Shown: positions 13,650 through 44,500 of the stretch, piece after piece
Layout of the letters: each line of letters opens with the position of its first letter
Position numbering within the stretch: position 1 is the stretch's first letter
NCBI GenBank assembly: GCA_964035545.1
Contig: OZ037767.1
Span: forward strand, 8,752,581 to 8,816,580
From: Bugula neritina
Taxonomy: Eukaryota; Animalia; Bryozoa
DNA: 64,000 bases
Direction: 5' to 3'
The notes under the pieces: model-generated
What the model saw: the letters and a program-made list of their open reading frames with translations, nothing else
Told to the model about the DNA's origin: nothing
The model's database searches: none
Made by a program: the position numbers and the translations under genes

Positions 13650-14836
13650 CTCTCTCTCTTGCAGTCAGTCGATACGACTATGACTGTTTTATGGATTCGG
13701 CTTAAATTTAGTTGCAGCTCTCCACGCAACTCTGTTGTCAGCTGTCTGCTGCCAAGAACTCAAGTTTATTGCTCTCCATTTCATATTCCTCTTACTCTTA
13801 GCAATATCTTTAAGTCTGAGTCTAGGTCGCCCTGTATTTCGTTTACCCTCTTTCAGCTGAGAGAAGAGCAATTGTCTTGGTAGCCGGCTATGTTCCATCC
13901 TGTGCACATGGCCTAGCCATCTCAGGTTCTTTTCTATAAGGACTTCGGCCATGCTTGGCAAATTGGCACGTCTTAATATTTCTTCATTCGTAATTTTGTC
14001 ATACCATTTTACAGCCATTTTGTCTCTCAGTTGCCTCATACAGCAGGCTTGAGAGCACTACCGCTCTGTAGACTTTACACTTTACTCTGATGGATACATG
14101 TCTGTTGTTCCAGAGTCTCTGCTGCAGTTTTCCGTAAGCCGCACTTGCTTTGCCTAGTCTGCTCCGTAACTCTTTATCTATTTTTGCCGTACAGGAAACA
14201 GTGCTTCCTTGATAAGTAAAGTCTGAAGCAAGTACAACTGGTTCTTGATCTAACATGACAACTTCAGGTTCAGGTGGGGCGTGGATGAGTTTGATTGGTT
14301 GGTACATGCATTCTGTCTTTTTAATGTTGATTTTTAAGCTAAACTGAGCCGCTGCTTTTGCAAAGTTGTTCACTAGCACTTGCATATCTGCAGCGCAATG
14401 TGCTACCAAAGCACTGTCATCAGCAAACAACATCTCTCTGACTAGGTGTTTGGTAGTACGGGTCTTAGACTTGAACTGAGCCACATCAAAGAGATCAGCC
14501 CCATGTCGAGTTTGAATATAAATCCCTTCATTTACATTTTTAAATGCCACTTCAAGCATAGCAGCCAAGTATAATGAGAATAGTGTGGGCGCAAGAACAC
14601 ACCCCTGCTTGACACCATTGGTTACTGCAAACTCATTTGAATCATCTCTACCTTGGCTTGCATTCCTGCATGAAGAGCTTTTATCAGGTTGGTGACCTTC
14701 TCAGTTAAACCAAACTTCTTCAGTACCCTCCAGAGGCCATTTCTTGATACTGTATCAAAGGCTTTTGTAAAGTCTATGAATACAGCATACAGCTCCATGT
14801 TCTGTTCAGCACATTTTTCTTAAATTTGGCGAATGC
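13650..14836 (-). mobile_element. 5'-truncated RTE-clade LINE, frameshifted RT C-terminal part
   Basis: RT motifs GVKQGCVLAPTLF, LFADD, LRWLGHVHRM..RLP, GRPRLR; (GA)n 3' tail; 14-bp TSD taaataactaaatt (13636-13649 and 14837-14850). Confidence 0.9.
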
Positions 14837-16089: not shown

Positions 16090-19000
16090 TGTTGAGGATC
16101 GGTATAGCCACAATTACAATAAAAATGAATAGCCTAGAGGGTCATAGACTGAAGCCACTTTAGAGAGAATTTGATGTAAAGTAATGTTGCATGTAGATAT
16201 AATTGTATTGGCAGAAAACTTTAATGTGTCAGTTTTGGTGCACCATTTTACTTCCAAGGCTCGTTTAACAGGGAGGATATTATCAGTGTTAGATAAATCA
16301 AGATCTTTCAGGGTATCAGACCTTTCACTATTAGGAATGGCGGCCAATATCTCTTTTTTTGCAAATCTCAATGGCTTGGTTTATGTTGTTTACCATTGTG
16401 GTGTTACAATTGCCAGATAATAGGCCATCATCCATGCACAGATTTCCTTGTAAAAGTCTTTTAGCTAAAACACTATTGGGGTCTTCAGAATCGCGCTGTT
16501 CAGAGACTGAATAATTTAGTCTGAAATTAGCATAACCTGAAATTGATTTTGCTCCAAACAAATGAACTGTCAATCGGTACTCAGCTATTTGATCAAATTT
16601 GTCATTGGTAAACCACAGATAATCTCTATCGTTTTCATTAACTTTGAATCTATAAAACATGCGTTGTATGTCGCACATGACAGCATGCTGAGCTAACCTA
16701 AATTTGTGCGAAACGCCCACGAACCTGTTCATAAGGTCTGGGCGTTGAAGCAGAAAGTCATTCAAACATACACTCTAAAACCTTGCAGAAAGGTTAAACT
16801 CTACCCTCAATGACAGTTTCTGCTTGTGGTAAACACCAAAGTGAGGTATACCAAAATTTATACCTCACTTGGTCAAATCCTATACCAAGATGCATACCTC
16901 ACCAATATCAAATCTTCAACAGAGAGAAGATGATCCCTTAGCCCGCCATCAGCCACTTCTACTACAATTCTGTCACATACCAAATTGTCTCTCATGCCAC
17001 CGTACTCTCATTCGTCTGCTTGGACCATGATTTCCGTAATAAAAGCATGCAATGGCTGACCTACAGCTTGAGACATCTTGTTGAATCTTAGTCTCTCAAA
17101 AAATACACTCTTAGCAGGCTTACAATATACATCAAACATTTTCTGTACATTGGCATATGTCTTGTTAGTTTCATTATCAAAAACAAATCTCTCATAGATG
17201 GGTAATACATCAGATACCGTCAACAACAACATATTTGCTATTTCTTCCTCCTCTGACTTCTTTCTCAGGTCCTTGACCAAATGATACTTAACTCTCAAAA
17301 TGTTAAATTTAAAATTGATACATGGGCTGAATACTCCAGCCAGTTGAGTATTCAGTCCCAGGAACTAATTCACGATCACCACTGCTGATTAACTTATTCA
17401 TAAAATCCAAATACTCAGAATTCTGCATGGAATTTTTCGCTAATTTAATCTTCAGGGCTCGAAGCCTTCTTATAGCCAGGGATTTATTGTATGGTAACTT
17501 AGGTTTTGACCGAAAGGGTAAGAACATTTTGTAAAGCTATCTCTAGTTTGAGAGATGCCAATTTCTAGTATGGATAAAAATTGCTTATCATCTTGGGAAA
17601 GAGCAAGCTGAGTTCCGATAGTCTGGTTTTTTCTAAAATCTTGTAATATGCCCAGAACGCTGGTAGGTTTTAGAGAGTTGAAAAAGCATGCAAATGTGAC
17701 TGCATTTATATCTGCTGAAGTTTGGAGGGAGTTTGAGAGCCCAACAATTTAATGTTTCATATAGGGATTAGTAGCACCTACTACACTCCATCCTAATGGA
17801 GTTTGACCGCATATGGGTCTAGCATTTGGCCCGGCTACTGACTTTAAAGGAATGAGGGCATGAGAGTTGTCATACCCTATGAGCATGCCAATTGGGCAGT
17901 TTTGCAGTTCTCGAATTTCATGAGCTATGTGTTGTAAATGATCTTTAGTTGGAATGTGAGATCTATTTAAAGGGTATAAAGTAAACATTTACCAAAGAAA
18001 TATGTTGATCAGCGTAGAAGCCCTTTATAGTCAACTCTTTGAACAATCTGATTTGTGTGCTTGCGCTATGATTGGTTGGATTTACTGTGTTGATTTAGAG
18101 ATTTGCTAGAGACTGATGAGGTATATCTAGAATGTCTGCTACAGTGTCACTAATGAATGTGGTATCACTCATATTATCAAGACGAGCATACACAAGGTGT
18201 TCCTTATTTGAATTGGGTGAGGTGGAAAGCCAAACTAAAATGATGTTTGATTTCTTTGTTTCTAGTTAAAGTTTGTGTTAGCTGTTTGAGTTGAGGAAGC
18301 ATGTAATACTTGAAAGACACCTATTGTGCTATTGGTGATAGTGTGATCTGCAGAAGTTTGTTAATGAGTTGGTGAGGCTGGTTGAATGTGATTGAGTGCA
18401 GGTGTATTGGGCTGGCTATGGCTAGAGTTGCTATGCATAGTGACTTGGTCAGATGATGAAGTTCTAACTACTTGATAATGTCTAAAAGTAGGGATGCTGC
18501 TTGCCACAGCCCTTTACTTGGCATTTTCATGTAGTGGTACATTTTTTAGACTTATGATCAGGCTTAAGGCACTTACATCATAAATTATTGCTTCTGATAA
18601 ACTTTTCTTGACCACAATCACTTAATTTTGCAAATTTCAAATTACACCCACTGAGGGTATGTCCTAGTACATCACAATATGAACAGTAATAAGTGCTAGC
18701 TCTAGATGTGAAAAAATTATTTCTATTGTGACTAATGTCAACTGGCTTGGTTATTCTAGGATGTGAATTACTCGAACTACAAGGTCGTTTTGGATGTCAG
18801 AATTTTGTTGGGTAGAAAATCAGGTAATTTCCGACAGGCTGTGAGGGTCATTGTGCCCTGCTAGTTCATGAACTGAGCCCATGGCTGACAGACATTGAAA
18901 TAAAAATTTTCTCAAAGCAGCTTCATCATTACCTTTAAAACGCTGAAAGCTTTCTAATTTATTTCTCAATGCTTCAGCAATAGTATAACTAGACCCAAAA

Positions 19001-19620
19001 CGCTCATAAAGTGTGTTGATTGCTGCATTGTATGCTTCTGGATCATGTACAAGTGTATAGCTTGTAATTGCGTCAGCAGCTAGATTGCCTGTATATTTGA
19101 AAATATAGTACAGCTTGCTTTTGTTAGAGACATTAATGTGTGCCATATAGCAAGTAAATGCTGCTTTCCAAGCAGGGTATTCTAATGGATTTCCCCTAAA
19201 AACAGGTGGCTCAGGTATGGGTGCACTTTCAGTGTTCAAGGCTTTAGTAAGACACACTCTGAGTTTGAGTGTGGTGGCGCTGAAACCCGACATTTGAGCA
19301 TACTCCCAACTTATTTCTGCGCTATCTACTATTCAAAACTTAGTCTTTTTGCTTTTGGCATGGGAGAGTAAAAGTAGAATGCCTTGTGCAAATGTTTTCT
19401 ATTTTTTTCCATGCTTCAATACCGAGTACAGTGCTGCTGGCCCGCTGCATGCTGTCTTCATACCTATCTTCTCCTTTTTAAGCTTGATCATTGACATCGC
19501 TTATCCGAAGTGATTTTGCAGCTTTAGAGATTTATGACTTCCCTCTTCATGTCTTGAGCTAACCAGTCTTTTTTGTACTGCCATAGCTTGTCCATGCTTT
19601 ATTGTGCTGTTATATTCTGA
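16090..19620 (-). mobile_element. Decayed BEL/Pao LTR retrotransposon (gag DUF1759-like, protease region and RT fragments)
   Basis: PPVFRGNPLEYPAWK..F..L.ERFG (gag), IGMLIGYD..TPLGW, LPFR..LPYN..LA.RRL, CDIQRMF..HLFGA..MDD (RT), ILSKVASVYDPLG; many stops and frameshifts; LTRs not located, so boundaries are approximate. Confidence 0.85.
16905..17300 (-). mobile_element. Gypsy-type gag fragment nested in the BEL element
   Basis: F..YCKPAKSVFFERLRFNKMSQAVGQPLHAFIT...ADE*EYGGMRDNLVCDRIVV..D..LRDHLL, a Gypsy gag pattern interrupting the BEL pol region. Confidence 0.65.
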
Positions 19621-26509: not shown

Positions 26510-29500
26510 ATGGCTGTACTTACCACAGCAGTTCTAGTGGCAATAGCAGTGGTGTTGCTGAGTTATAACTTCATAAAATGGCTGAAGGTGAGTAAGACAA
26601 ACAATCAATTTTACTAATTTATAAGCTGTCTGCTTGAAATCTAAATATTTTCCTATTTAAAAATTCACTGAACCAATAGCATAGGTTTATGTTTTCTAAA
26701 TATAAGCATTTTGGGATGCTGCTTGTTAGGTGAAGCATCAACTACTCTAGTTTTGTAGCAGCGGCAGCCTACCTGCTCAAGCTTGCTACCTGCTTCTGAA
26801 ACCACCAATTAAACAATAGATTTAGGTCATTGCTCTTTCAGAAGCCACAAAATCAAATGGTTTATTTCAAAGTTAATAGCAATAAAAAGTGGAAGCTGTA
26901 GTTCATTTATCTGTTGTATGGTTTCGGGTTTTATGCAGTTTGTGTAGTATAAATTTTTAGCGGAGTTCTTTTTTTATCAAATTCCTTTTAAAGTTTATCT
27001 TCTGTGATTTCACTGCTTTGCTTGGTATGTAGTCTGTATTTTATCTGCTGTTTTGTTTATTTAAAAGAATCCTCTAAGGAAAATACCAGGTCCTACAGGG
27101 TTGCCACTATTTGGTAATACATTCTCTATTAATCCAAAAAAGCTTCACATGACACTGTATGACTGGGCAGAGAAATATGGAGATATTATGAAGATATCAC
27201 TATTCAACACTCCTGTAGTTGTGATTAACTCAACTGAGATGGCATATGAGGTCCTCGGAAGAACTGGTAATGTTGACGTAAACTCGATAACACACAATAT
27301 ATTAATAATAATAGTTATTAAATTAATATTCATATGAATGCATTAATTGTGCTACAGGAACAGATTTTCAAGGTAGACCAGAAAGTTTGCGGTCTGAAGT
27401 GTTGATTGGTAAAGATTTAGCTTTTGCTGTAAGTTATCAAAACATTTTATAGATGAATATTTTGAGATACTATTTAAACTTGCAAAGTAGCATCAGTTAT
27501 AAGTTGCTTGTAGAGCCCGTAGCACACAGCACCTAACTTTGGCATAACTCTTTGCTTCCATCTTAGTTCTTAGAGTGTATTAGAGAATAGAGTGCTGTGA
27601 ATACTAATTTAAACAATGCTGTGTTAGTTATTGGAAATATATTGCAAGTTGCACTCCAGCCAGCTGAGCTTTATAGACTTCCATAGATAAAAACACTCAA
27701 TTGTGGTTGCAGATTTCTAGATATGGGTGGTTTCCAATTTGAGTGATTGTTGGTCACGTGATCAAGATCTCTTGTTATTGTCTGAACCACTTGTTGCTTG
27801 CTGCTTTTGTAATATTCCTAAAGTAACTATAGGATTAGCAAAACTTCTGATCAACCTGATTCCACATAGTTTCATCATCAATTATTCAGTTTCTATAATT
27901 CCACCAGTAGGCAAGACTTGAAAAGGTGCTTGTAAGGAATGTAGCAGTGTGTCTTTTTAGGATGTGAGGAAACATGGATATCAGGAGATGCGGAGCATGT
28001 CTATAAAGGCTTTCAAAGCTTATGGTGAGGGCGTAGCTCATTTGGAGAAAATAATACAGGATGTCACAGCTAACCTTGTGCAAGATATCACCAAACATGA
28101 TGGAAAGCCATTGGACACTGACCAACTAGCCTACGGCTATTTCTGCTGTGTTATTGCATCAATAGTAAGAATATTTCACAGTATAAGTGTACGACAGTAG
28201 GATGCATGATAGAGTAGATTTCTGATCTAGTTATTTCTAAACTGTTGAAAAGTCACTTGTGGTAAGATTTTAGTTGTTGTGCTATTACAATTAACTTTGA
28301 TATTTCAAGTTGAAAAATCAAAGTTGATTTTCATGTTATTGAACCAGTTTGTCAAAAATACTACTCTTGTAGTTTGCCAGGACCAACATTATTTTCACAC
28401 AAAATTACTGCTAATGTGTTAATAGTTCAATATTTCTGGAAATTCTTCCCCCTGCTTTAAGGGAAGTTTGGAGCTTGTTGGTAAACACATTAAAAATATT
28501 AAATGAGAAAATTTATACCCATACATATTACCTACAAAATTATATTAATTTCTATCAATGTTATTCGTTCCACTTAAAGCAAGATAGCATGCTGCGCTGG
28601 TTTAGAAACTGTGTGTACATCAATGTCTGTAATTGACAATATTGATTGAAAATGTTAAACATTGATGTGAAGTTTTATGTGAAATAAATCAACTGCCAAT
28701 CTTTTTCAATTGCTAAAATTGCTTATGGAATAACACAATGTATTCACATAATGTATACTGTAGCTAGTTCACATGTATTAAATTAACCAAAGGCATTAAT
28801 TTTTGAAAATCTTCTAACTCTTGTGATGTGAATTGTAAGATATGACAACACTTCTAAAGGTCTCCTTCCTCATGAGAAATTTTTTGGCATCTTTGAAAAA
28901 TAAAAAAAATTTGTTACTCAGCTAAACTATATGCGAGGTTGTGAGACATGCTCTGCAACTTACTGCTAATATTATATATAAGTAGTATATGTGGAGCATT
29001 TGGGACCCCATCCCTGTGTTATATTCCCCATTACTCACACCGAGAAATCATTTTACTCACGGCTGGGGTAATTAATTATACATTAATTTTTTTATTTTTT
29101 TACTCATGCAAAATTATATGTAGAAAACTTGGGACCCCATCCCTGTGTTATATTCCCCATTACTCACACCGAGAAATAATTTTACTCACGGCTGGGGTAA
29201 ATAATTATACATTAATTTTTTCTTTGTTTTTTTTACTCATGCAAAATTATATGTGGAGCATTTGGGACCCCATCCCTGTGTTATATTCCCCATTACTCAC
29301 ACCGAGAATTCATTTTACTCACGGCTGGGGTAATTAATTATACATTAATTTTTTTCTTTGTTTTTTTACTCATGCAAAATTATATGTGGAGCATTTGGGA
29401 CTCCATTTTTGTGTTATATCCCAATTACTCTAAAACAGATGAACAGTTACTTTACTCTGTGTTAATATAAAAGTGAATATGAACCAAATAAAAGTTGTGA

Positions 29501-32500
29501 TATTTGAAATTATTTTTATTATTGTGGTAGATGTGAAAACAAGCACATATACTCAAGTCCATACCGTGCTAGCAAAATGACTAGATTTGTTCATTCATCT
29601 ATAGTTCATGATTTTGTATGGTCTACGTTGTCAGAGAATTGGTTGTGCTGCTCTCCTTTTTTTGTGGAAACAAAGCATGTGAAGCATTTTAAGAAAAAAT
29701 ATAAAATGTTAACCATAAACGAAGTTAAATTGTGTAAAAATCTTGGAAACATTTTAATATCATGTCCAAATTTTCCTCAAAACATCAACACATTTATTAA
29801 ATATATGCTCAGCATTTCAAATGTTTCAAGAGAAAACAAGTATTTTAAAATAATGTGCATCATTGTTCAGTTATCAGATTCATTGCTTGTTCAGCATGAT
29901 ATAAAGAAAATTGAAACTTTGATTGAGATATGTCAGCAACATATTGATAGTTCATGTAAGAGCAAGTATTTGTTTATTTTACATTTGCTTGGAATATTAA
30001 TGATGATAATATGTTTGTACATTACGTATAAACAGATATCTTATTAGGTAAGCTATATGTAAAAGCTTTATTCACATTATTTTTTGGACAAACAATGATC
30101 ATATACATTCGAAATATTATATTATACTAAATGCATTGAATAATATTCAAAGTATGGTGATATATAATTGGATTGCAAAGTGAAAGTATTCGTTGGTATA
30201 AGATAGGTTTTGTAATTTTGTAATAAATATTTTGAACATTTGTTTGTAAAGAAGTATTCAACTAGACATATAGTGCAAATAATTGGAGTCTTGTGAAAGT
30301 GTTGTTATTAATTATTATTATTATTATTGGTTGTATCACAGCTTTTTAGCTGGTGTAACCTTTTATAACCACAACCTAGTTTCACTAGGTCGATGGTATG
30401 ATTATTATTATTATTATGATTGTTATTGTTTGAAGTTACATAATGCATATTATAATAATATTATGCATGCATTGTGAAAACTTTCTTTTGCAGAACCCTA
30501 TAGTAGCTTGTCCATGCATGGATGTGTTTGAATAATTTGAGTATTTACATGCTTTTATATATTTCTTCTAAGATGATTAATTAAAATGAAGACAGGAAAT
30601 ATTTCAAGTGTTAACTTTGCCTTCCACAAAATTCCTTCATTATAGACAATCATGAGCTTTTTATAACCAATGAAACCAAAGCTTTTTCAACCATGAATTC
30701 AAGAGTTAACTACATTATTTTGCTAAATCATTCAAGCTTATCAGTTCATTTGTCATTCTTGTTTTGCAGAAAAGGAGTTTTGTGACAGTTGTTGTAATTA
30801 TTGGATACCACAGTTTACTAATGGACAAATTATTACAGAATGATATTCCATCGTCAACATTTCATAAAGCAATTTACAATAAAGTGCTACTTTACCAGAT
30901 ATGCAATCAAATATGGATTGAAACCAAAAAGCTTGCTTATTATTCATGTGAAGCTTGTCTTAACCCAAACAGAATATTTGCTCATACATGCTTACACATA
31001 TGGAATGAAACTCAGCTTTTAGACAATGGTTGGGCAAAAAACTTTACTGAAAAGTATTTCAAGGATGCATTAAATAATGTTTCTTGGAAGAAAATACAAT
31101 TGTATATGGAAAGGTATAATCATTTAAATAGAGACAATAGGAAATGTAACAAAATGTTTTGGATAACAAGAAGTCGAAGATTGTTTCTACAAAAAACACT
31201 ATTATCCTCTCTTAATAATATTGTCAAGGAAGAAGAACAATTTTATATACAAGTATAATAATTTGTTTAAAGGCAATGCATACATTTAAAAATTATTATT
31301 TACTTTTATACTCTAGTATTTACGTTTCTCATTCTATCACTGTGAATAACATAATAAAATAGAATGTTGATGTGAGTTGACAAAGTATGTTTTATAATTT
31401 CATCTTCAATTTTCATAAAAATTAAAGGTTTTGATTTTCTGGATTCATTTGAATATAGCATACCAACCATGCAACATCTCAGCTTGATGGAACAAATTTT
31501 CCGTCATCAAAAATCATTGCTAGCTATAATTTTTTGCTTAACGACAGCTCTAATTACTCTAACTGTTTATAACTCAGTTTCTGAAGAAAGTAAAGCAGTT
31601 GAATCAATTAAAAATTTACAAAAAATATTATTCTCAACCGATAATATTACATTACTTGAAAGAAATTCTACAATATAAATAAATGGAGAATAAAGAAATA
31701 GACATTTCCCTTCATTCGCCATTCACAGGAATTATTAACGGTAAACATTAATTACTAAACCAACTCACTTCCTAGCAATTTCCCCATTATTTTTTGTCAA
31801 GTCATGGATGGAATAAATTGATTAGATTGATTTAATTACAAATGCTTCCTATATAATTGGTTTAAGCGGATTAAAACCGTCTTAAGAAAATTAAATCTAA
31901 AATGATGAAGTATAAATGTTGCTAATGTATTATAAAATTGTGGTATTACAAAAATTAAAATAGATTCACAGGAGATTGATAAACTAAAAGTGTAAATGGA
32001 ATTAGCTTTTACTAAGATTATTTTTTGATTGCGTGTCAATAAAGCGGAAAAGAAAAATAAAGCGGACACAAATAATGATTTATCGCAGTCAAGTCTTATA
32101 CAGAATGTAGTTAAGCTTTATTTTGCAATTACCTAAAGTTTGTATAAACAATTTTTAGCTCAACTATTTTATTCAACTGCAGTAAAGTGAAATGAAACCA
32201 AGTTGGAAAACATAATTGTTGATACAGGTCCTACTGGATCCGGAAAAAGTGTTCTGATGAAAAAGATTTTGGAAAACAGCAACAGTCTTATATTCCCAAA
32301 TGTTGAAGAATGCATTATTAATTACAGTGTTTGGCAGACATTGTACGAACAAATTCAAGTTCCATTTCCAATTAAATTTTTAGAAGGAATTACAAATATT
32401 GAAGATATTCCAAGAGACAATAAGCATAGGCTAATTATTATTGACGATTTGATGAATACTTTATCTGAGTCACAAGAAGTGTGTGACCTGTATACAAAAT

Positions 32501-35500
32501 ATTCTCACCATTTGAATATTAGTGTAATTATATTAGTTCAAAATCTGTTTGAAAAAGGCAAGTATTTTCGAACAATAAGTTTAAACACTCATTATTTATG
32601 GTTGCTAAAGTCTGTTAGAGATACATCAATTATATCTACATTAGGAAGACAAATGATGAACTCAAAGTTTTTATCTAAATGCTACAAAGATGCAGTTAGC
32701 AAAAAATTTGGTCACCTATTTATTGACATGAAAGCCTCATCAGATGATAAATATAGAGTAAGATCCAATACATTTGATGAAGAAGTTGTGGTATATGTTG
32801 ATCAGTAGCTCAATAGATCATGACTTTTATTATTATAATTCTGTTTTTATCAATATTGCCATTTATTCTGCAAAGTTTTGCAATATTTTTTAAATATTTT
32901 CATACAAACAAAAAAACAAAAAAATATACATTTTCTTTTACAAATTTACTAATATCAAGAATTTTTTTCTTAGGTCCACCAAACAAGAGTATATCAAACT
33001 ATTTTGTTGAGTCAGTTTCAAGCAACAATATAATTTTATAAACAAAATTTATTTTCATAAATCTCTTGGAAGCATTCAGAAAAAAACAATGTTATATAAA
33101 AATGCTTTATATAAAACTGCTTATATAAAGGATGTTATATTTTTAAAAGTTTAACAATGTAATGCAGAAATCTTTAAAATTTTCAACTTTGTTAAAAGAA
33201 TGAAAAAAACTTATGTTGCAAATGTATTTTAAGATTGATTTCAAATATGTATTGTGAGTAGAGTTTAGAAAGCTAATCAAAAATTTTTAGTAATCTTAAG
33301 ATACGGAAGTAAAGGGTGCATCATAATAATATACTGAAAAATAGATTTTTTTATTCAATTTGAAGTGAGTCTTGAAGGATAACTTAAGTTTAAAGTAACA
33401 GTCATGGGTTAAATTTTTTTAGAAAAATTGTTCAACCTCTTAAGTTACCCATTGGCTAGCTGAAAACCAAAAAGCAATCGGATTGAATAGTTATTTTTAG
33501 TAGGAGGAGAATGAGTTAAGCATGATTAATTGAAATTTTTTGTATAAAATATCTATCTTTTCGATGTTTCACCATTATCAGTTTGTGATATCAATTAAAA
33601 ATCTGCCTCAAGTCAAAAGAAAATAAAATGTAAGTAATATTTCATATATAAATAATAAACAAAATTTTATGTGAAAATTAAATGAAATTATTAAAAGAAT
33701 TTTTTCTTTGTACGTAGCATCAAAAAATTATAAAGTTTGTGTTTAGATTTTAAATTAATGATTTTTAGAATAAATAAAAAATATGAGTGTTTTGGATGAT
33801 GGACTGGTTAAGTGTGGATATTGTGGAAATATTTGGGATGGCTGTGCACAGTGTGACTGCTATAACATTTTTCCAGAGATATATAATCGTGTTGAAGAAT
33901 CGAATCAAGTATGTTGACAAATATTATGTTTCTAGGTGCACCTAAATATTTAGTGAAACTTGATTATGTTATTTTGGAGTTACCCTTTCATGAATGTGTT
34001 AGTACTTGTTTTGTGGATATGCGGAGCTTGTCCACAAAACATAATGAATTATTCAAGCAGTAATGCAGTCATGAAGGGGCAACTCTAAAATACAATAGCA
34101 TCACAATATTATTAGCTATATATAAATATATATATTTTTTTGTTTTTATAATTTTTTACTTCTTGAAATATTTTAGAAAAGTTTTTTTTCTGTAAGTTTA
34201 TTTTGTGTTTGATAATTTCAAACCACTTTAACTTAATTATGTTTGTGCAAATATGCTTTTAATAAGTAATTTTTTTTTGTAGATGCCTCCAAAATCTCAA
34301 CTTAAAAAACTTGTGAAAACCTTTATCAATGATGAAGCAATTGAGGTGAATGATGGAGAATATGAGGAAGAAATGTCATCTCAACTTGTACCAAAAAAAT
34401 GTAAAGGAAAAGGAAAAGGCAGACCAACTGCAAAGGTGGGTGTTAACCAGGGTTGGGGTAATTGTAATTTGTAATTGTAATTGGTTGTAATTATTTACAT
34501 TTTTTCAAGTAATTGAATGTAATTTGTAATTGATGTATAAAAATGTAATTGTAATTAATTACATATTTAATGTAATTGATTTTTACAATTACTTTATAAT
34601 TACATGTCAATTACTTCAAACTTTGAAATCCTAAAAGTTTCATACTTTTCCTACCATGCCTACTGTTAAATAACAAATTCAGATTAATTGTCAATGTGGT
34701 ATAGTATTACTGTTGAGTACAAAGGAAGTTCAGCACTGTCAAAATTGCCCCTGCTAGTTGGACCCTAGAAGTGAAATTGCATAACTTCTATTTATCTCTT
34801 GCGAGAACAAAAGTAATTGTAATTGTAATTAATTACATTGCCATGTAATTGTAATTGTAATTAATTACATTACTATTTGACTGTAATTATAATTGTAATT
34901 GTAATTGACAAATTATCATGTAATTGTAATTGTAATTAATTACATTCACATGTAATTGACCCCAACCCTGGTGTTAACTTTTAATTCAGAAATTAACTTT
35001 GATTTTAAATGGATGAATTTTATTCACATAATTTAAACAATTTTTAAAATTTACAGACTTCTACAATTAAACGAAAGCTTGATTTGAGCAGCGACGACAA
35101 TGTAGAAGATGATATATCATCAAAACGCGCTTTGATGAACAAGGAGGCTCAACAAGAAATTGAGGATAATTTGGCCATGTTCAAAAAGTGGAGTGCCAAG
35201 ATGAACAAATATTCTTCTACATCTGCTTGCTCTGCAAGCACAAAAGGTTAGTATTTCTAGGTTAATGATATTGTAATCTGCGTAAATTTCATGAATATTC
35301 TGAGTATTTGATTATGTTAAAGGAAGTGATATCGAGGAGGTGGATTCAACTCCACGTAGGGTTCTTCTGCCGACACCTTCCTCTGCATCTACTATGACCA
35401 TTGCCAATTCACCACCACCACATCATTTTCAAAATCTATCATGTGATGATGATCATGTGTATACGATTCGCTTAGAGGATGCGAAAGTTGAGGACCTTCT

Positions 35501-38500
35501 TATAGAGGTAATTAATTTTTGAAGAGTTATATACAAGTTTATTTTTGATGTGTTTAGGGACCTATTTTTTTACTTTTATATCTTATTAACAAATTTTTTT
35601 CTTCTATGCAACTAAACTATTATAATATTTTATGCATGTAAATTTCTATGTTAAGGGAACTGGTAGATGGCTCTCAATTTACCACAAGCTTGACGACAAA
35701 AAGAGGAATATAATGATTGTTGCACGTAACCAACTCAGTCAGGGATGTAAGTAATTTTGCTATTTGTAGTTATTTAATATTTGTAAGTATGTGATTTGCC
35801 AAAATTACTCAAACGTTAATTTAACATAAAATAAATATATATATTTTTTTGTTTTAGTCTTGGCGCCACGAAAAAAGTGGGCTAATGGCGCATTTCAGGG
35901 AGACCCAATTGGCTATAATGTCAAACTGGCCCAGTCCAGTCATCTAGTCAAATTTATCCAAGGTATTGAGCGGGAAATAGCTGCAAAAGGTTATGTAGTC
36001 AAGAGTAGGACCAATTCCTCCCATACATACATCAGTGTTAGAGGAAATGCCATCAGTAGCGACACAACGTGAGTATACTATAAATATCCATATTATACTA
36101 AAAAAATTCTTTTTTATTTGAGTTCAAAATCGAAAAAATAACTGATTAAATTGCGTCATGTTAATTTACATAGGTTCTACAACCGTGACAAAGAAATCAC
36201 GTTTGAAGAGGCAGTTTCTATAAAAGACGAGCAGATGGAAGTATCTGTATGTATGGAATTGGAGAGTGTTGTGGAGATCGGAGAACTGAAGTTTGTAAGA
36301 GCTCGTGTGAACAGCATAAGAATGGAAAAGACATGCCGTCAACAACCAGAGAACAATCAGCATATTAACATTTGTAAGATGAAAAATTTTTTTGCCAGTG
36401 TATGACACATTTCGCCGAGTTTTGCATGTCATAGTTGTACTAGTGTGTTTTCGAGAACGTTTAATCTCCTAAGACATATTAAAACATTGCATACCTCTGT
36501 TCAACATTTCTTATGTCAAAACTGCAACACTCAATTCACTTCTGAAATTGACTTACAAATTCACCACAACACTTGCAATGAAAACTTATGTATTCAAATT
36601 GGGGGAGCACATTCATCTCATAATCACTCAGATAATGAAGAGGGTCAGACAACTTTTCAATCTCATAATAGTGATATTGATAATTTAATTAAAAATCGAT
36701 GGAACTCAATTAAATCGTATTTTAAGTGTAGAAAAATTGTTGACGTATACAATTTCCGCATGGTTAATCAAAAGAATGCATTTATACAAACCATAAAACA
36801 TGTATATATAACAAAAATAAAAACTCAAATTAAACTTCAATGCTGCATCGGATTTGTTCTAATTAATAATTCAACAAAGCAATTGAGATACTTTCACAGT
36901 TCTGTTAACAACACTGCATTGTTTTCCAAGCCTCAATCAGTTGGAAATCTTGAACAATTTTTACAAGTCTGTGAACAAATAAATCAAACAGATTTGCACC
37001 AGCATGCAATTTCTAAAAGACCAAACAGTTCATGGAGTGTTGCATTAATTACTAACATAACATTTTACTTCACTAAATTAACATTTGGCAAATTTGGTGC
37101 ACCAATTACTTTACCTAAACACATTGTGAGAAACAAATCAATTGTTTCGCTTACCTCTAACCATCATGGAAAATATAATGACAATCTATGTTTCTTTCGT
37201 GCTCTTGCTCTCAGCAAAATATGCAAATGTAAAACAAAATGCATGTGTGTCAAACGCATTGAGCAATTGACTCTCAAATTCTTTCGAAAGTTTTGTGCTG
37301 TAAAATCACTCCAGTGTAATAAAAAGTCATTTGAGGGTGTGGATATTCAAGATTTTGGTCTACTGGAAGAAATTTTCAATATAAAAATTACAGTTTACAC
37401 ATTGGATAGCTTTGGAGTGTCCTCAATTCTAGTACAGTCAATGAAATCAAACATGCATGAACTTAATTTATGCGCTTACAAAAACCACTTGTGCTATATT
37501 AAAAATGTTCAGACTTTTTGTAAATGCTTCAGGTGCAAGACCTGCTCCCAATGTTTTGACCGCAGATCAAATTTAACAAGGCACACAACTGGATGTGCCA
37601 AAGCGCAATCTCAATTAATTTACCCTCAAGAAACCTTTTTTCCTAAACCATCAATATTTGAAATTATTGAAGAGCAAACAGGAATAGCTATTCCACCTCA
37701 ATTAAGATTTTATCCATATCGTGCAACTTTTGACATTGAGTGTTACCTTGAACCAATTAGTAACTGTAATACATCTATGCTTTCTTTTACGTCTAACCAC
37801 AAGGTGATGAGCATCAGTGTTTGCTCTAATATTCCTGGCTATACTAGCCCACTATGCTTAGTATCAAATGGAAATGTTGATGAGCTCATGGAAGGTTTTG
37901 TAATTTACCTTGAGCTATTAAGTTCAGTTGCCAAACAGTTATGCCTAAAACAATTTGAAAACATTTTTAATGACCTTGAGACTGTCAAAAATGATCAGCT
38001 TTTATCAGAAAAAAATTTTCAAAGCATGAATTGGTCTAATCAGAAAGTTTACAATAACAGGTCTATTGAAAATCTAAAAATGCAACTAGAATCCTATTTT
38101 AGTGAGCTTCCAGTTATTGGTTTTAATAGCCAAAAGTACGATATAAATTGCATGAGAACCCCACTTGTTAGAAATCTATTGAAGCATGATAAAATTCAAT
38201 TTGTAATAAAAAGAAACAATGCAATGAAGTGTATCAAAACTAAACATTTAAAATTTCTTGACATCATTAATTTTATAGCTCCAGGGTTTTCATATGCAAA
38301 TTTCATCAAAGCATACAATTGTAGTATGAAGAAAGGCTTTTTCCCATATGAATATGTCACATCATTAGAAAAGCTCAATGAGAATTCTCTGCCTGCACAT
38401 GAAGCTTTCTACAGTAGTCTAACTCAATCAAATATCACAGCAGCAGACTATCAGAATTGTAAACAGGTTTGGCAAAACAAAAACATGCTCACAATGAAAG

Positions 38501-41500
38501 ATTATTTGATTTATTACAACAATCTTGATGTATTACCATTTTTAGAGGCAGTTGAAAAACAACACATGGTTTATCGAGAAAAAGGCATTGATATGTTCAA
38601 GGATGGAATTAGTGTTCCATCTTTAGCTACTAAATGGTTATTTAATGAATTAAATACTAAAAACTTTTTTATTCCGTTGATTGGCAGAAAAGATGCAGAC
38701 TTGTATAAAACTATACGGAATAATATTATTGGGGGTCCAAGTATTGTTTTCCACAGATATCATGAAGCTGACAAAACTTTTATTCGTAAAAATTCATTTG
38801 ATAGTAAATCAAAAGTTTGTAAAAATGTGTTTGGCTTTGATGCCAATGCTTTGTATTTGTATTGTGCTATGCAAGAACTTCCAACAGGTTCAATCATTAG
38901 GAGACGTAAAGAAAATAACTTTCGTCCAAAGTTTTGTGACTATTTTGGGAGACTGAGTGTTGAATGGTTAGAGTACTGCTCCTACTTGAATGGTGTGTTT
39001 ATTCAACATAAATATAATAAGGGTGAACAAAAAGTTGGGCAACACGGGCTCCCAGTAGATGGTTATTGCAAGCAATTGAAAACAGTTTTTCAGTTTCATG
39101 GTTGTTTATTTCATGGACATAAGTGTGTAAAAACAAAAGGGGTAGTATTTAATCCAATTAACGGAAAATCCAATATTTGTAATTCCTTCTAAAAATTTAA
39201 TTGGAAATGGAACTTGAATTTGTTCGTACAATGTCTGCCAAACACTGTAATTAATAATGCATTCTTCAACATTTGGGAATATAAGACTGTTGCTGTTTTC
39301 CAAAATCTTTTTCATCAGAACACTTTTTCCGGATCCAGTAGGACCTGTATCAACAATTATGTTTTCCAACTTGGTTTCATTTCACTTTACTGCAGTTGAA
39401 TAAAATAGTTGAGCTAAAAATTGTTTATACAAACTTTAGGTAATTGCAAAATAAAGCTTAACTACATTCTGTATAAGACTTGACTGCGATAAATCATTAT
39501 TTGTGTCCGCTTTATTTTTCTTTTCCGCTTTATTGACACGCAATCAAAAAATAATCTTAGTAAAAGCTAATTCCATTTACACTTTTAGTTTATCAATCTC
39601 CTGTGAATCTATTTTAATTTTTGTAATACCACAATTTTATAATACATTAGCAACATTTATACTTCATCATTTTAGATTTAATTTTCTTAAGACGGTTTTA
39701 ATCCGCTTAAACCAATTATATAGGAAGCATTTGTAATTAAATCAATCTAATCAATTTATTCCATCCATGACTTGACAAAAAATAATGGGGAAATTGCTAG
39801 GAAGTGAGTTGGTTTAGTAATTAATGTTTACCGTTAATAATTCCTGTGAATGGCGAATGAAGGGAAATGTCTATTTCTTTATTCTCCATTTATTTATATT
39901 GTAGAATTTCTTTCAAGTAATGTAATATTATCGGTTGAGAATAATATTTTTTGTAAATTTTTAATTGATTCAACTGCTTTACTTTCTTCAGAAACTGAGT
40001 TATAAACAGTTAGAGTAATTAGAGCTGTCGTTAAGCAAAAAATTATAGCTAGCAATGATTTTTGATGACGGAAAATTTGTTCCATCAAGCTGAGATGTTG
40101 CATGGTTGGTATGCTATATTCAAATGAATCCAGAAAATCAAAACCTTTAATTTTTATGAAAATTGAAGATGAAATTATAAAACATACTTTGTCAACTCAC
40201 ATCAACATTCTATTTTATTATGTTATTCACAGTGATAGAATGAGAAACGTAAATACTAGAGTATAAAAGTAAATAATAATTTTTAAATGTATGCATTGCC
40301 TTTAAACAAATTATTATACTTGTATATAAAATTGTTCTTCTTCCTTGACAATATTATTAAGAGAGGATAATAGTGTTTTTTGTAGAAACAATCTTCGACT
40401 TCTTGTTATCCAAAACATTTTGTTACATTTCCTATTGTCTCTATTTAAATGATTATACCTTTCCATATACAATTGTATTTTCTTCCAAGAAACATTATTT
40501 AATGCATCCTTGAAATACTTTTCAGTAAAGTTTTTTGCCCAACCATTGTCTAAAAGCTGAGTTTCATTCCATATGTGTAAGCATGTATGAGCAAATATTC
40601 TGTTTGGGTTAAGACAAGCTTCACATGAATAATAAGCAAGCTTTTTGGTTTCAATCCATATTTGATTGCATATCTGGTAAAGTAGCACTTTATTGTAAAT
40701 TGCTTTATGAAATGTTGACGATGGAATATCATTCTGTAATAATTTGTCCATTAGTAAACTGTGGTATCCAATAATTACAACAACTGTCACAAAACTCCTT
40801 TTCTGCAAAACAAGAATGACAAATGAACTGATAAGCTTGAATGATTTAGCAAAATAATGTAGTTAACTCTTGAATTCATGGTTGAAAAAGCTTTGGTTTC
40901 ATTGGTTATAAAAAGCTCATGATTGTCTATAATGAAGGAATTTTGTGGAAGGCAAAGTTAACACTTGAAATATTTCCTGTCTTCATTTTAATTAATCATC
41001 TTAGAAGAAATATATAAAAGCATGTAAATACTCAAATTATTCAAACACATCCATGCATGGACAAGCTACTATAGGGTTCTGCAAAAGAAAGTTTTCACAA
41101 TGCATGCATAATATTATTATAATATGCATTATGTAACTTCAAACAATAACAATCATAATAATAATAATAATCATACCATCGACCTAGTGAAACTAGGTTG
41201 TGGTTATAAAAGGTTACACCAGCTAAAAAGCTGTGATACAACCAATAATAATAATAATAATTAATAACAACACTTTCACAAGACTCCAATTATTTGCACT
41301 ATATGTCTAGTTGAATACTTCTTTACAAACAAATGTTCAAAATATTTATTACAAAATTACAAAACCTATCTTATACCAACGAATACTTTCACTTTGCAAT
41401 CCAATTATATATCACCATACTTTGAATATTATTCAATGCATTTAGTATAATATAATATTTCGAATGTATATGATCATTGTTTGTCCAAAAAATAATGTGA

Positions 41501-44500
41501 ATAAAGCTTTTACATATAGCTTACCTAATAAGATATCTGTTTATACGTAATGTACAAACATATTATCATCATTAATATTCCAAGCAAATGTAAAATAAAC
41601 AAATACTTGCTCTTACATGAACTATCAATATGTTGCTGACATATCTCAATCAAAGTTTCAATTTTCTTTATATCATGCTGAACAAGCAATGAATCTGATA
41701 ACTGAACAATGATGCACATTATTTTAAAATACTTGTTTTCTCTTGAAACATTTGAAATGCTGAGCATATATTTAATAAATGTGTTGATGTTTTGAGGAAA
41801 ATTTGGACATGATATTAAAATGTTTCCAAGATTTTTACACAATTTAACTTCGTTTATGGTTAACATTTTATATTTTTTCTTAAAATGCTTCACATGCTTT
41901 GTTTCCACAAAAAAAGGAGAGCAGCACAACCAATTCTCTGACAACGTAGACCATACAAAATCATGAACTATAGATGAATGAACAAATCTAGTCATTTTGC
42001 TAGCACGGTATGGACTTGAGTATATGTGCTTGTTTTCACATCTACCACAATAATAAAAATAATTTCAAATATCACAACTTTTATTTGGTTCATATTCACT
42101 TTTATATTAACACAGAGTAAAGTAACTGTTCATCTGTTTTAGAGTAATTGGGATATAACACAAAAATGGAGTCCCAAATGCTCCACATATAATTTTGCAT
42201 GAGTAAAAAAACAAAGAAAAAAATTAATGTATAATTAATTACCCCAGCCGTGAGTAAAATGAATTCTCGGTGTGAGTAATGGGGAATATAACACAGGGAT
42301 GGGGTCCCAAATGCTCCACATATAATTTTGCATGAGTAAAAAAAACAAAGAAAAAATTAATGTATAATTATTTACCCCAGCCGTGAGTAAAATTATTTCT
42401 CGGTGTGAGTAATGGGGAATATAACACAGGGATGGGGTCCCAAGTTTTCTACATATAATTTTGCATGAGTAAAAAAATAAAAAAATTAATGTATAATTAA
42501 TTACCCCAGCCGTGAGTAAAATGATTTCTCGGTGTGAGTAATGGGGAATATAACACAGGGATGGGGTCCCAAATGCTCCACATATACTACTTATATAAAT
42601 AAGCAGGTTTGCCATCCTAAGTCGTAGAACCTACTAATCTAGTGCATATACTTTCATTCTGTCATGTCCAGGCTTTTTCTTTATATAAAAGTGTCAGCAG
42701 TTTTTGAGTAACAATCAGAATAATGTAGATTTATGTTGTGTTTGCTTCACGAACATTTTACTGAAAACGTTGCATTCAAGTTGGGTGATATTTTGTCACG
42801 GTTTGTAGTTGTATGGTGAACAGTATACATATGATGATCCTGTGTGTCAAAAACTTCATATTATGAACAAGGCATCAATGAAAGCAGTTAATCCTGTGTC
42901 ACTGGGACACCTATTGGACTGTTTCCCAGTATTGTTTCGGCAAAATGTAATACTGAAGGAAACTATAGCACAGATTAGAAATACCAAAGATTTTATAGAC
43001 AGAGTGTTCTATGAAAAGATCAATGAATACAAGGTACAAATGTAAAAGTTGATAGTATATATTGTATTCCCAGTGAGTAATGTGCTTAATTTATCAAAGT
43101 CCCAGTCTGTTACAATAGTATGCAGGTCTAGAGCTTTTAAAGCTTGCAAAATGTGCCTGTGAAACATTTTAAAATAATATTTATTGCAGAAAAGACAGCA
43201 AAAAGTAATATATCTGTTAATTTAAGCCAAATGTCTCGGGTATTATATACCTGCCAGCTTAAGCCAAGTCAGGGAAGGTAAAACTTGTGGGCCAACAATA
43301 CACTGTATTAGCTAACAGTGATCACTTCTGTATGCTCCTTAGTATTTTATTTCTTTAGAGTTTGCAGCTCTTCCAATTCTTACAGACATTAAGTATCCCG
43401 TGAAAGTTGTTTATATTATAGTCTGGGTTTGACGAGACCGACATGAGAGGAATGTTGGATCAACTCATATTAATTCAAAGACAGGAAAGTGGTGAAGGGA
43501 AACAGGTAATGGATGACGCGGCAATCCGTGGAATACTGTTGAATTTTGTGGTCGGAGGTGAGTAGAACAGCTGTATTGGCATGACTCATGCATCACAATT
43601 GTTAATATGGTAAACTTACAGCTTTTACCATCAGATATAATCTGTAATTATTTTAGGAATGGAGACAAGCCACACAGTCATAAGTCAGGCTTTTCTTGAT
43701 TTCCTCCATGAACCAGATTTACAGAAGAGACTCCAGGATGAGATTGACAGTCAGTTTGATTCAACTCATATCATCACATTGCAAGACAGGTAATGCACAC
43801 ATGTGCATGAAATCGTGCAAACTTTTGCACACTCACTTGCACATTGGGTGATTTGCTATAGTAATGAAGTTTACACCTTTATATCACTCAGCTGAATGTA
43901 GGGGAGCTGTAGTGATGATTTACCCAGTGTCCCCGTGGTGTAATGGTTAGCACACTTGCTTGCAAGCCAGAGGTCTTGGTTCGATTCCCAATGGGGGCAA
44001 TTATTTTTTCAGGGAGTAAATATTAAAGTCTTGTTAGAATCTATATTCTAAGCCATAATAGATTGAGGCAAATTGTACTCTTTACAGTTAGTAAAATTCA
44101 ATTATGACTATTAAATGCTGCAAATTCAACAGTTGCTTCGATTTATTTAACAAAATACTGTGATCAAAAATTTATACCAAAGCTCTATGCTTCTATTAGT
44201 TATGTTTGGGATTAATGTGCTAAATTGGTTTATTAATATATACATATGCTACTCATTTGTAATATTTGCTGTTTATTTATTTTAATAATGAGCATTTCGG
44301 TAGATCCGCTAAAATTTCACCACATGTACCGCACACTGATATTGCTTATTATTATAGGCATAAACTACCATTACTGCAAGCTTACATTCAAGAAAATATA
44401 AGATATAAGACGGTCAACCCGATACTTTTAGCACATGAAACAATCCGAGACACACAAATTGCTGGATACAAAGTAAGTCATTGGTTTTTATTTTCTTCAC

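Follow-up and report, generated by a model that had tools for sequence, protein, structure and literature searches.

The window analysed here, a stretch of 64,000 nt from Bugula neritina (contig OZ037767.1, assembly GCA_964035545.1), carries a Polinton-derived element with a frame for the polymerase pPolB and, directly upstream of it, a spliced gene (Table 1). Six exons within 34283..36405 join through five GT..AG introns of 621, 76, 148, 111 and 105 nt into one frame of 353 aa without internal stop. The GC content is 0.18-0.25 in the introns and 0.35-0.45, thus 15-20 points higher, in the exons. Using 200 dinucleotide shuffles, we obtained longest spliced open reading frames (ORFs) with a mean of 91 and a maximum of 215, none of the 200 attaining the 353 of the real DNA; the observed donors were part of the donor list, and the identical list was applied to the shuffles. 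The pPolB frame opens right after the stop of exon 6, at 36406. A preliminary description, made from the sequence alone, had joined these scattered ORFs into one gene adjoining pPolB, and both points held. Its gene extent was correct for the six exons, but the start lies further upstream, as exon 0 had been overlooked. Exon 0 is in frame with exon 1, which gives a gene of seven exons and 395 aa. The evidence for it comes from contigs of runs X4 and X12, in which the letters 5′ of 34283 match 33879-33908 of the window (29/30), ending at the GTATGT donor.

Splicing was followed in contigs of sequencing runs. Eighteen of the 21 listed runs, from six studies, contain part of the stretch; one such run (X12) is recorded as RNA, the other runs with spliced contigs are RNA-like and X15 is DNA-like. 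Four runs were compared over 34000-39400 for splice joints, and X3, X1, X7 and X15 were compared a second time at intron 5. Intron 1 is skipped exactly in contigs of three of the four runs, intron 2 also in three (as a 77-nt skip whose joint has one differing, allelic letter), intron 3 in two, and intron 5 in all four and again in three of four in the second comparison (X3 again, X1 and X7). As X15 spans intron 5 without any joint, the skip reflects splicing and not a deletion allele. Intron 4, in a stretch flagged as repeat, has no listed joint; its splicing fits by length, one X4 contig having 97 letters between 35505 and 35862, which equals exon 4 plus 6. The joints of introns 1, 2, 3 and 5 thus lie at the ends predicted from the sequence. 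The contigs are 90-99 % alike to the window and therefore come from sister copies rather than the window copy itself, so it is to sister copies of the window gene that the splicing evidence applies.

Most of intron 1 is a small inverted repeat with TGTAAT-type repeats (about 34441-34978), which begins a few bases past the donor; despite this insert the donor is still used in the sister copies. X3 joins exon 1 (34281) to upstream letters absent from the window, and X10 represents a diverged copy with a different exon 1 donor and a joint omitting exon 3 (window 35244-35655). These variants are either sub-families or alternative splicing. One spliced X12 contig extends from exon 5 into pPolB to 36709, although a contig is no proof of a single transcript. 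Read variants in the spliced gene were synonymous in 13 of 34 cases and none led to a stop, in a set too small and too selected to carry weight.

A search with pPolB, which yielded two loci from 63 candidate stretches, recovered a second element, L001. This complete element of 14.9 kb encodes an ATPase, an orthologue of the spliced gene, a 1398-aa pPolB, an integrase (rve, E=6e-10) and double jelly-roll (DJR)-like and protease-like ORFs, the last two below the cutoff. The orthologue has 375 aa, sits between the ATPase and pPolB as in the window, and is identical to the window protein at 143 of 355 aligned residues. Identity reaches 41-46 % in exons 5-6 vs 32-44 % in exons 0-4. Five introns are common to the two genes; their phase agrees, and so do their positions (exactly for four, within a gapped stretch for the first). 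The only one not shared, located between exons 2 and 3 of the window gene, is absent from L001.

Searched with a profile, 1.84 billion representatives yielded 15 matches, all of 40-158 aa; the ten that were looked up are unnamed, as are their cluster members. Pieces resembling exon 5 start after pyrimidine-rich text and end at the donor position, for those resembling exon 6 the beginning coincides with the acceptor position, and introns 4 and 5 are read through in P0048 and P0027 at equivalent places. These exon-sized pieces bounded at splice positions indicate a wide family with retained introns, which gene callers detect in pieces only. The preliminary description had expected ORF-based annotation to overlook the gene, and a Polinton gene rather than a captured host gene; the fragments bear out the former, and the L001 orthologue beside pPolB the latter, the gene being conserved in related elements and not having the look of a recent capture from the host. 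A word-based protein search found no match with exon 5 and two short pieces with the exon 4-6 profile. Viral contigs queried with pPolB or exon 5 held no related loci, prokaryote genomes gave one 2.3-kb pPolB piece, the phage search no match, and neither PHROGs nor Pfam a family for the exon 4-6 core. Structure, splicing, conservation and position establish that the spliced gene is real, and it represents a conserved, unnamed, spliced Polinton gene family. In a distant homologue, P0032, the part resembling exon 5 continues directly into exon 6-like text, and intron 5 may be lacking. The N.CK..NFF-type tail at the end of exon 6 (window 36365-36402) is conserved in five homologues; it loosely resembles a PCNA-binding box, minus its Gln, and could be a partner-binding tip.

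Table 1. Coordinates of the spliced gene and of the element that carries it (window positions)
Feature	Position	Strand	Description
Exon 0	33783-33908	+	ATG, CxxC-NIWDGxAQCxC module, donor GTATGT, phase 0
Exon 1	34283-34435	+	low-complexity stretch, acidic then basic (KGKGK)
Intron 1 of six-exon model	34436-35056	+	621 nt; inverted-repeat insert takes up most of its length
Exon 2	35057-35246	+	acidic patch; in both models a KRKL motif at residue 98
Exon 3	35323-35507	+	linker rich in Ser/Thr/Pro; exons 2 and 3 fused in L001
Exon 4	35656-35746	+	conserved core begins
Exon 5	35858-36068	+	strand, long helix, strand; 211 nt in window and in L001
Exon 6	36174-36405	+	predicted short strands, then a short helix and a long beta-hairpin; N.CK..NFF-type tail (conserved); TGA
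Polinton-derived element	28981..42591	.	ends AGTAGT...ACTACT, TATATA 6-bp flanks both sides
Left end	28981..32401	+	3421 nt; 133-nt tandem repeats; three ORFs without family match at cutoff
Packaging-type ATPase ORF	32191..32808	+	Pox_A32 E=2e-4 (below cutoff); 57 % to L001
pPolB frame	36406..39170	+	in frame with exon 6; C2H2 fingers at front; truncated at 39170
Right end	39171..42591	-	inverted copy of left 3421 nt, in place of pPolB remainder and integrase/capsid module

The zinc module encoded by exon 0 matches no Pfam family at cutoff. A pattern search on its central residues found 17 viral loci, many of them in giant-virus metagenome-assembled genomes, and the flanking CxxC and CxC, which were outside the search pattern, are present in all 17. 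Its occurrence in giant-virus contigs means that exchange with that pool has happened. In L004-L020 the module is terminal or central in small ORFs of 59-188 codons on giant-virus-type contigs.

The element has the inverted AGTAGT//ACTACT ends and 6-bp target duplication of Polintons/Mavericks. Its right 3421 nt are the inverted left end with zero mismatches, and no integrase, capsid or protease gene lies between the ends of the window copy, whereas L001 has them. As the inverted left end cuts pPolB at 39170, the window copy is non-autonomous. All four runs compared continue pPolB beyond 39170 and none bridges the fold-back junction. The fold-back is likely a copy-back product; the 6-bp flanks and the different host DNA on either side favour a real, recently integrated derivative, mis-assembly being the less favoured origin. 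The pPolB frame is 54 % identical to the 1398-aa ORF of L001; Pfam recognises zinc fingers only, and we take the frame to be a polymerase from its motifs and context. Three ORFs of 179, 182 and 100 codons in the duplicated left end (window 29508-31678) had no counterpart in L001. P450-like exons flank the element (27961-28197, 42809-43045 and 43422-43565), the left one matching PF00067 at E=1e-4, below the cutoff, and the right ones, without match at 0.01, called by eye; judged from these exons, a host P450 gene likely harbours the element in one of its introns. Elsewhere the window contains a 15-nt tandem array (2368-2955), a reverse-transcriptase fragment (13999-14700) and a DUF1759 retrotransposon fragment (18820-19332).

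Regarding function, the reading that we tentatively favour is that this Polinton accessory gene of seven exons and 395 codons likely encodes the element's predicted SSB (a protein that binds single-stranded DNA). The exon 4-6 core would fold as a gp2.5-like oligonucleotide-binding (OB) barrel and, as protein-primed replication proceeds from the element ends, cover the strand that pPolB displaces. A regulatory role would fall to the zinc module and the disordered basic/acidic N-terminal half, which would direct the protein into the nucleus and towards cell-cycle factors of the host, as does the N-terminal part of adenovirus DBP. DBP is a nuclear, spliced protein with a disordered N-terminal half and a folded C-terminal domain, tied to the protein-primed polymerase in E2. 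The window gene resembles it in this layout, in splicing and in the link to such a polymerase, and likely forms one replication transcription unit with pPolB, as in E2; it differs in that no DBP family in Pfam matches it and that its zinc module is N-terminal and of giant-virus type. The fold, the binding of single-stranded DNA and the shared transcript are steps that we infer.

Several observations agree with an SSB. The predicted order in both models (strand, long helix, strand, short strands, short helix, long hairpin) is that of gp2.5-type SSBs, and the core has a basic character and conserved columns of aromatic residues and Arg/Lys. The best local profile match to the giant-virus DUF5871 set has the register expected, with the start of exon 6 facing the part from D.EKK..I to ITEMNSVYF, though not above chance. 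The splicing and conservation of the gene, the exon 0 module shared with giant-virus contigs and the X12 contig reaching into pPolB also count on this side. The position beside pPolB is fixed in the window and L001, and viruses with a protein-primed polymerase often encode SSBs (PMC4889955).

Two structure models had pLDDT values of 33 and 55 and included intron text, and so are no evidence on the fold either way; fold searches with these low-confidence models found no match. The PDB sequence search returned none at E<0.1, and ESM Atlas, searched with exon 6 of L001 and with P0032, gave unrelated, chance-level leads. For profile comparisons we used a reference set of 37 giant-virus proteins, 14 of 16 scanned matching DUF5871, which we presume to be the giant-virus SSB, with a weak in-register match to gp2.5 (E=0.025) as backing. 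The following points weigh against an OB-fold SSB. The profile score against the DUF5871 set was 11.8, while shuffles had means of 11.7-12.6 and 36 and 59 of 100 reached 11.8; a further comparison with the giant-virus set gave E=0.18, and that with T7 gp2.5 E=0.41. Even the control pair, the DUF5871 set and T7 gp2.5, reached no better than E=0.025 in local mode and went undetected by global hhalign. An acidic C-terminal tail, typical of gp2.5, is absent, the final 25 residues holding 1 and 3 Asp/Glu in the two models vs a mean of 8.4 in the 37 giant-virus proteins, although three of four printed members of the set also have none. The hairpin lacks the conserved Trp/Phe of the giant-virus set, and SSBs of pPolB viruses are described as unrelated to OB folds (PMC4889955). 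Of the OB-fold assignment made in the preliminary description, which placed the protein with those of phage T7 and of nucleocytoplasmic large DNA viruses, the agreement in predicted secondary structure stands, and the fold and profile searches and the missing tail do not bear it out. An SSB identity of the family is plausible.

A somewhat unlikely alternative is an early regulator similar to the 'Oncoid' genes of adintoviruses, whose zinc module and disordered motifs would push the host into S phase or activate element genes, the core binding double-stranded DNA or proteins and not single-stranded DNA. Both models contain KRKL.[LF] at residue 98, a cyclin-docking form, and the splicing is reminiscent of adenovirus early genes. 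There are also LxCxD/IxCxD sites, and the paired CxxC, the CK2-type sites and the location upstream of PolB fit the description of Oncoid genes, which occupy the equivalent position (PMC8502044 section 3.2), a further point against the SSB. However, LxCxE and CR1 motifs are missing from both models, and conservation is highest in the folded core of exons 5-6, not in the motifs. The window gene is moreover spliced, and PMC8502044 has no word beginning with 'splic'. Capture of a host gene as cargo without replication role appears quite improbable. The spliceosomal introns would suit it, as core genes of vertebrate Mavericks are intronless (PMC8097293). Against it speak the lack of any named or full-length cellular homologue among the 1.84 billion representatives and of a Pfam or PHROG family for the core, the viral nature of the exon 0 module and the same position in two elements that differ as much in pPolB as the window and L001.

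We consider it unlikely that the product assists replication with another fold, as a non-OB protein that binds DNA or stimulates the polymerase, and may partly be produced by read-through as a fusion to pPolB. Exon 6 lies in one frame with pPolB, separated by a single TGA that is kept in contigs of X15 (15 of 15 differences listed), X3 (6 of 6) and X1 (2 of 2). No ATG occurs in the pPolB frame ahead of codon 119, and its first two zinc fingers precede any ATG (window 36403-36760); in 11 of 20 relatives the start lies no more than six residues from the first finger. Past the stop, codons 3-4 have two variants that are synonymous in the pPolB frame. However, L001 has two stops and an own ATG at the pPolB start, a common frame has a chance of 1 in 3, two synonymous sites are few, and the polymerase start may simply be decayed in this family. 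For a spliced leader into pPolB, no clean joint was found at the pPolB start in six RNA-like runs, whose contigs drop rare forms. One candidate, the X4 joint 35393-37118, was dropped, having 39 foreign letters.

With T7 gp2.5-like SSBs, which occur in phages and giant viruses (PMC4889955) and, as a T7-like SSB, in gamadviruses (PMC11253617), the window gene shares the predicted strand/helix order, the replication context and, by eye, an aromatic motif after the last strand; besides lacking significant profile similarity and the acidic tail, it differs in its long zinc-plus-disordered N-terminal half, six introns and protein-primed element. The SSBs of Bam35 and phi29, described as the first OB-like case (PMC8276246), are likewise SSBs of protein-primed replicons with a diverged OB-like fold (predicted on the window side), but they are short, intronless proteins of bacterial viruses, and PHROGs gave no window match. 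Polintons/Mavericks as described in PMC8097293 share the ends, the 6-bp flanks, pPolB and the ATPase with the window element, L001 adding the integrase and the DJR-like capsid and protease-like ORFs; they have eight intronless ORFs, in contrast to the conserved spliced gene here, and the window copy has lost the integrase/capsid half. Introners are known from dinoflagellate Polinton-like elements (PMC11957031). A search of the openly accessible literature found no paper describing a Polinton SSB, and PMC11161782, 10.1101/2023.08.22.554363, 10.64898/2026.10.13.758929 and 10.64898/2026.06.19.733378 contained no such passage under the terms asked.

A wider proposal, possible though doubtful, is that a clade of animal Polintons has a gp2.5/giant-virus-type OB-fold SSB with a fused giant-virus zinc module, ancient position-conserved introns and an adenovirus-E2-like unit with pPolB, the polymerase being maybe reached by stop read-through in a sub-family. 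The introns, in fixed places across elements about 40 % identical in protein, point to a long stay in the nuclei of hosts. Intron-bearing cargo occurs in nematode Mavericks. The presence of a conserved spliced gene next to pPolB means that ORF-based annotation misses part of the stable Polinton gene set, and the gene provides a concrete protein for folding and assay. The model for Polinton replication comes from adenovirus and phi29, both dependent on SSBs. Should the SSB reading be true, the gene would supply the SSB still missing from the strand-displacement replication of Polintons, as an SSB of gp2.5 type in a eukaryotic replicon with protein priming, and a gp2.5-like fold would link Polintons to the giant-virus replication kit. 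With any other fold, the gene would still define an unnamed conserved family.

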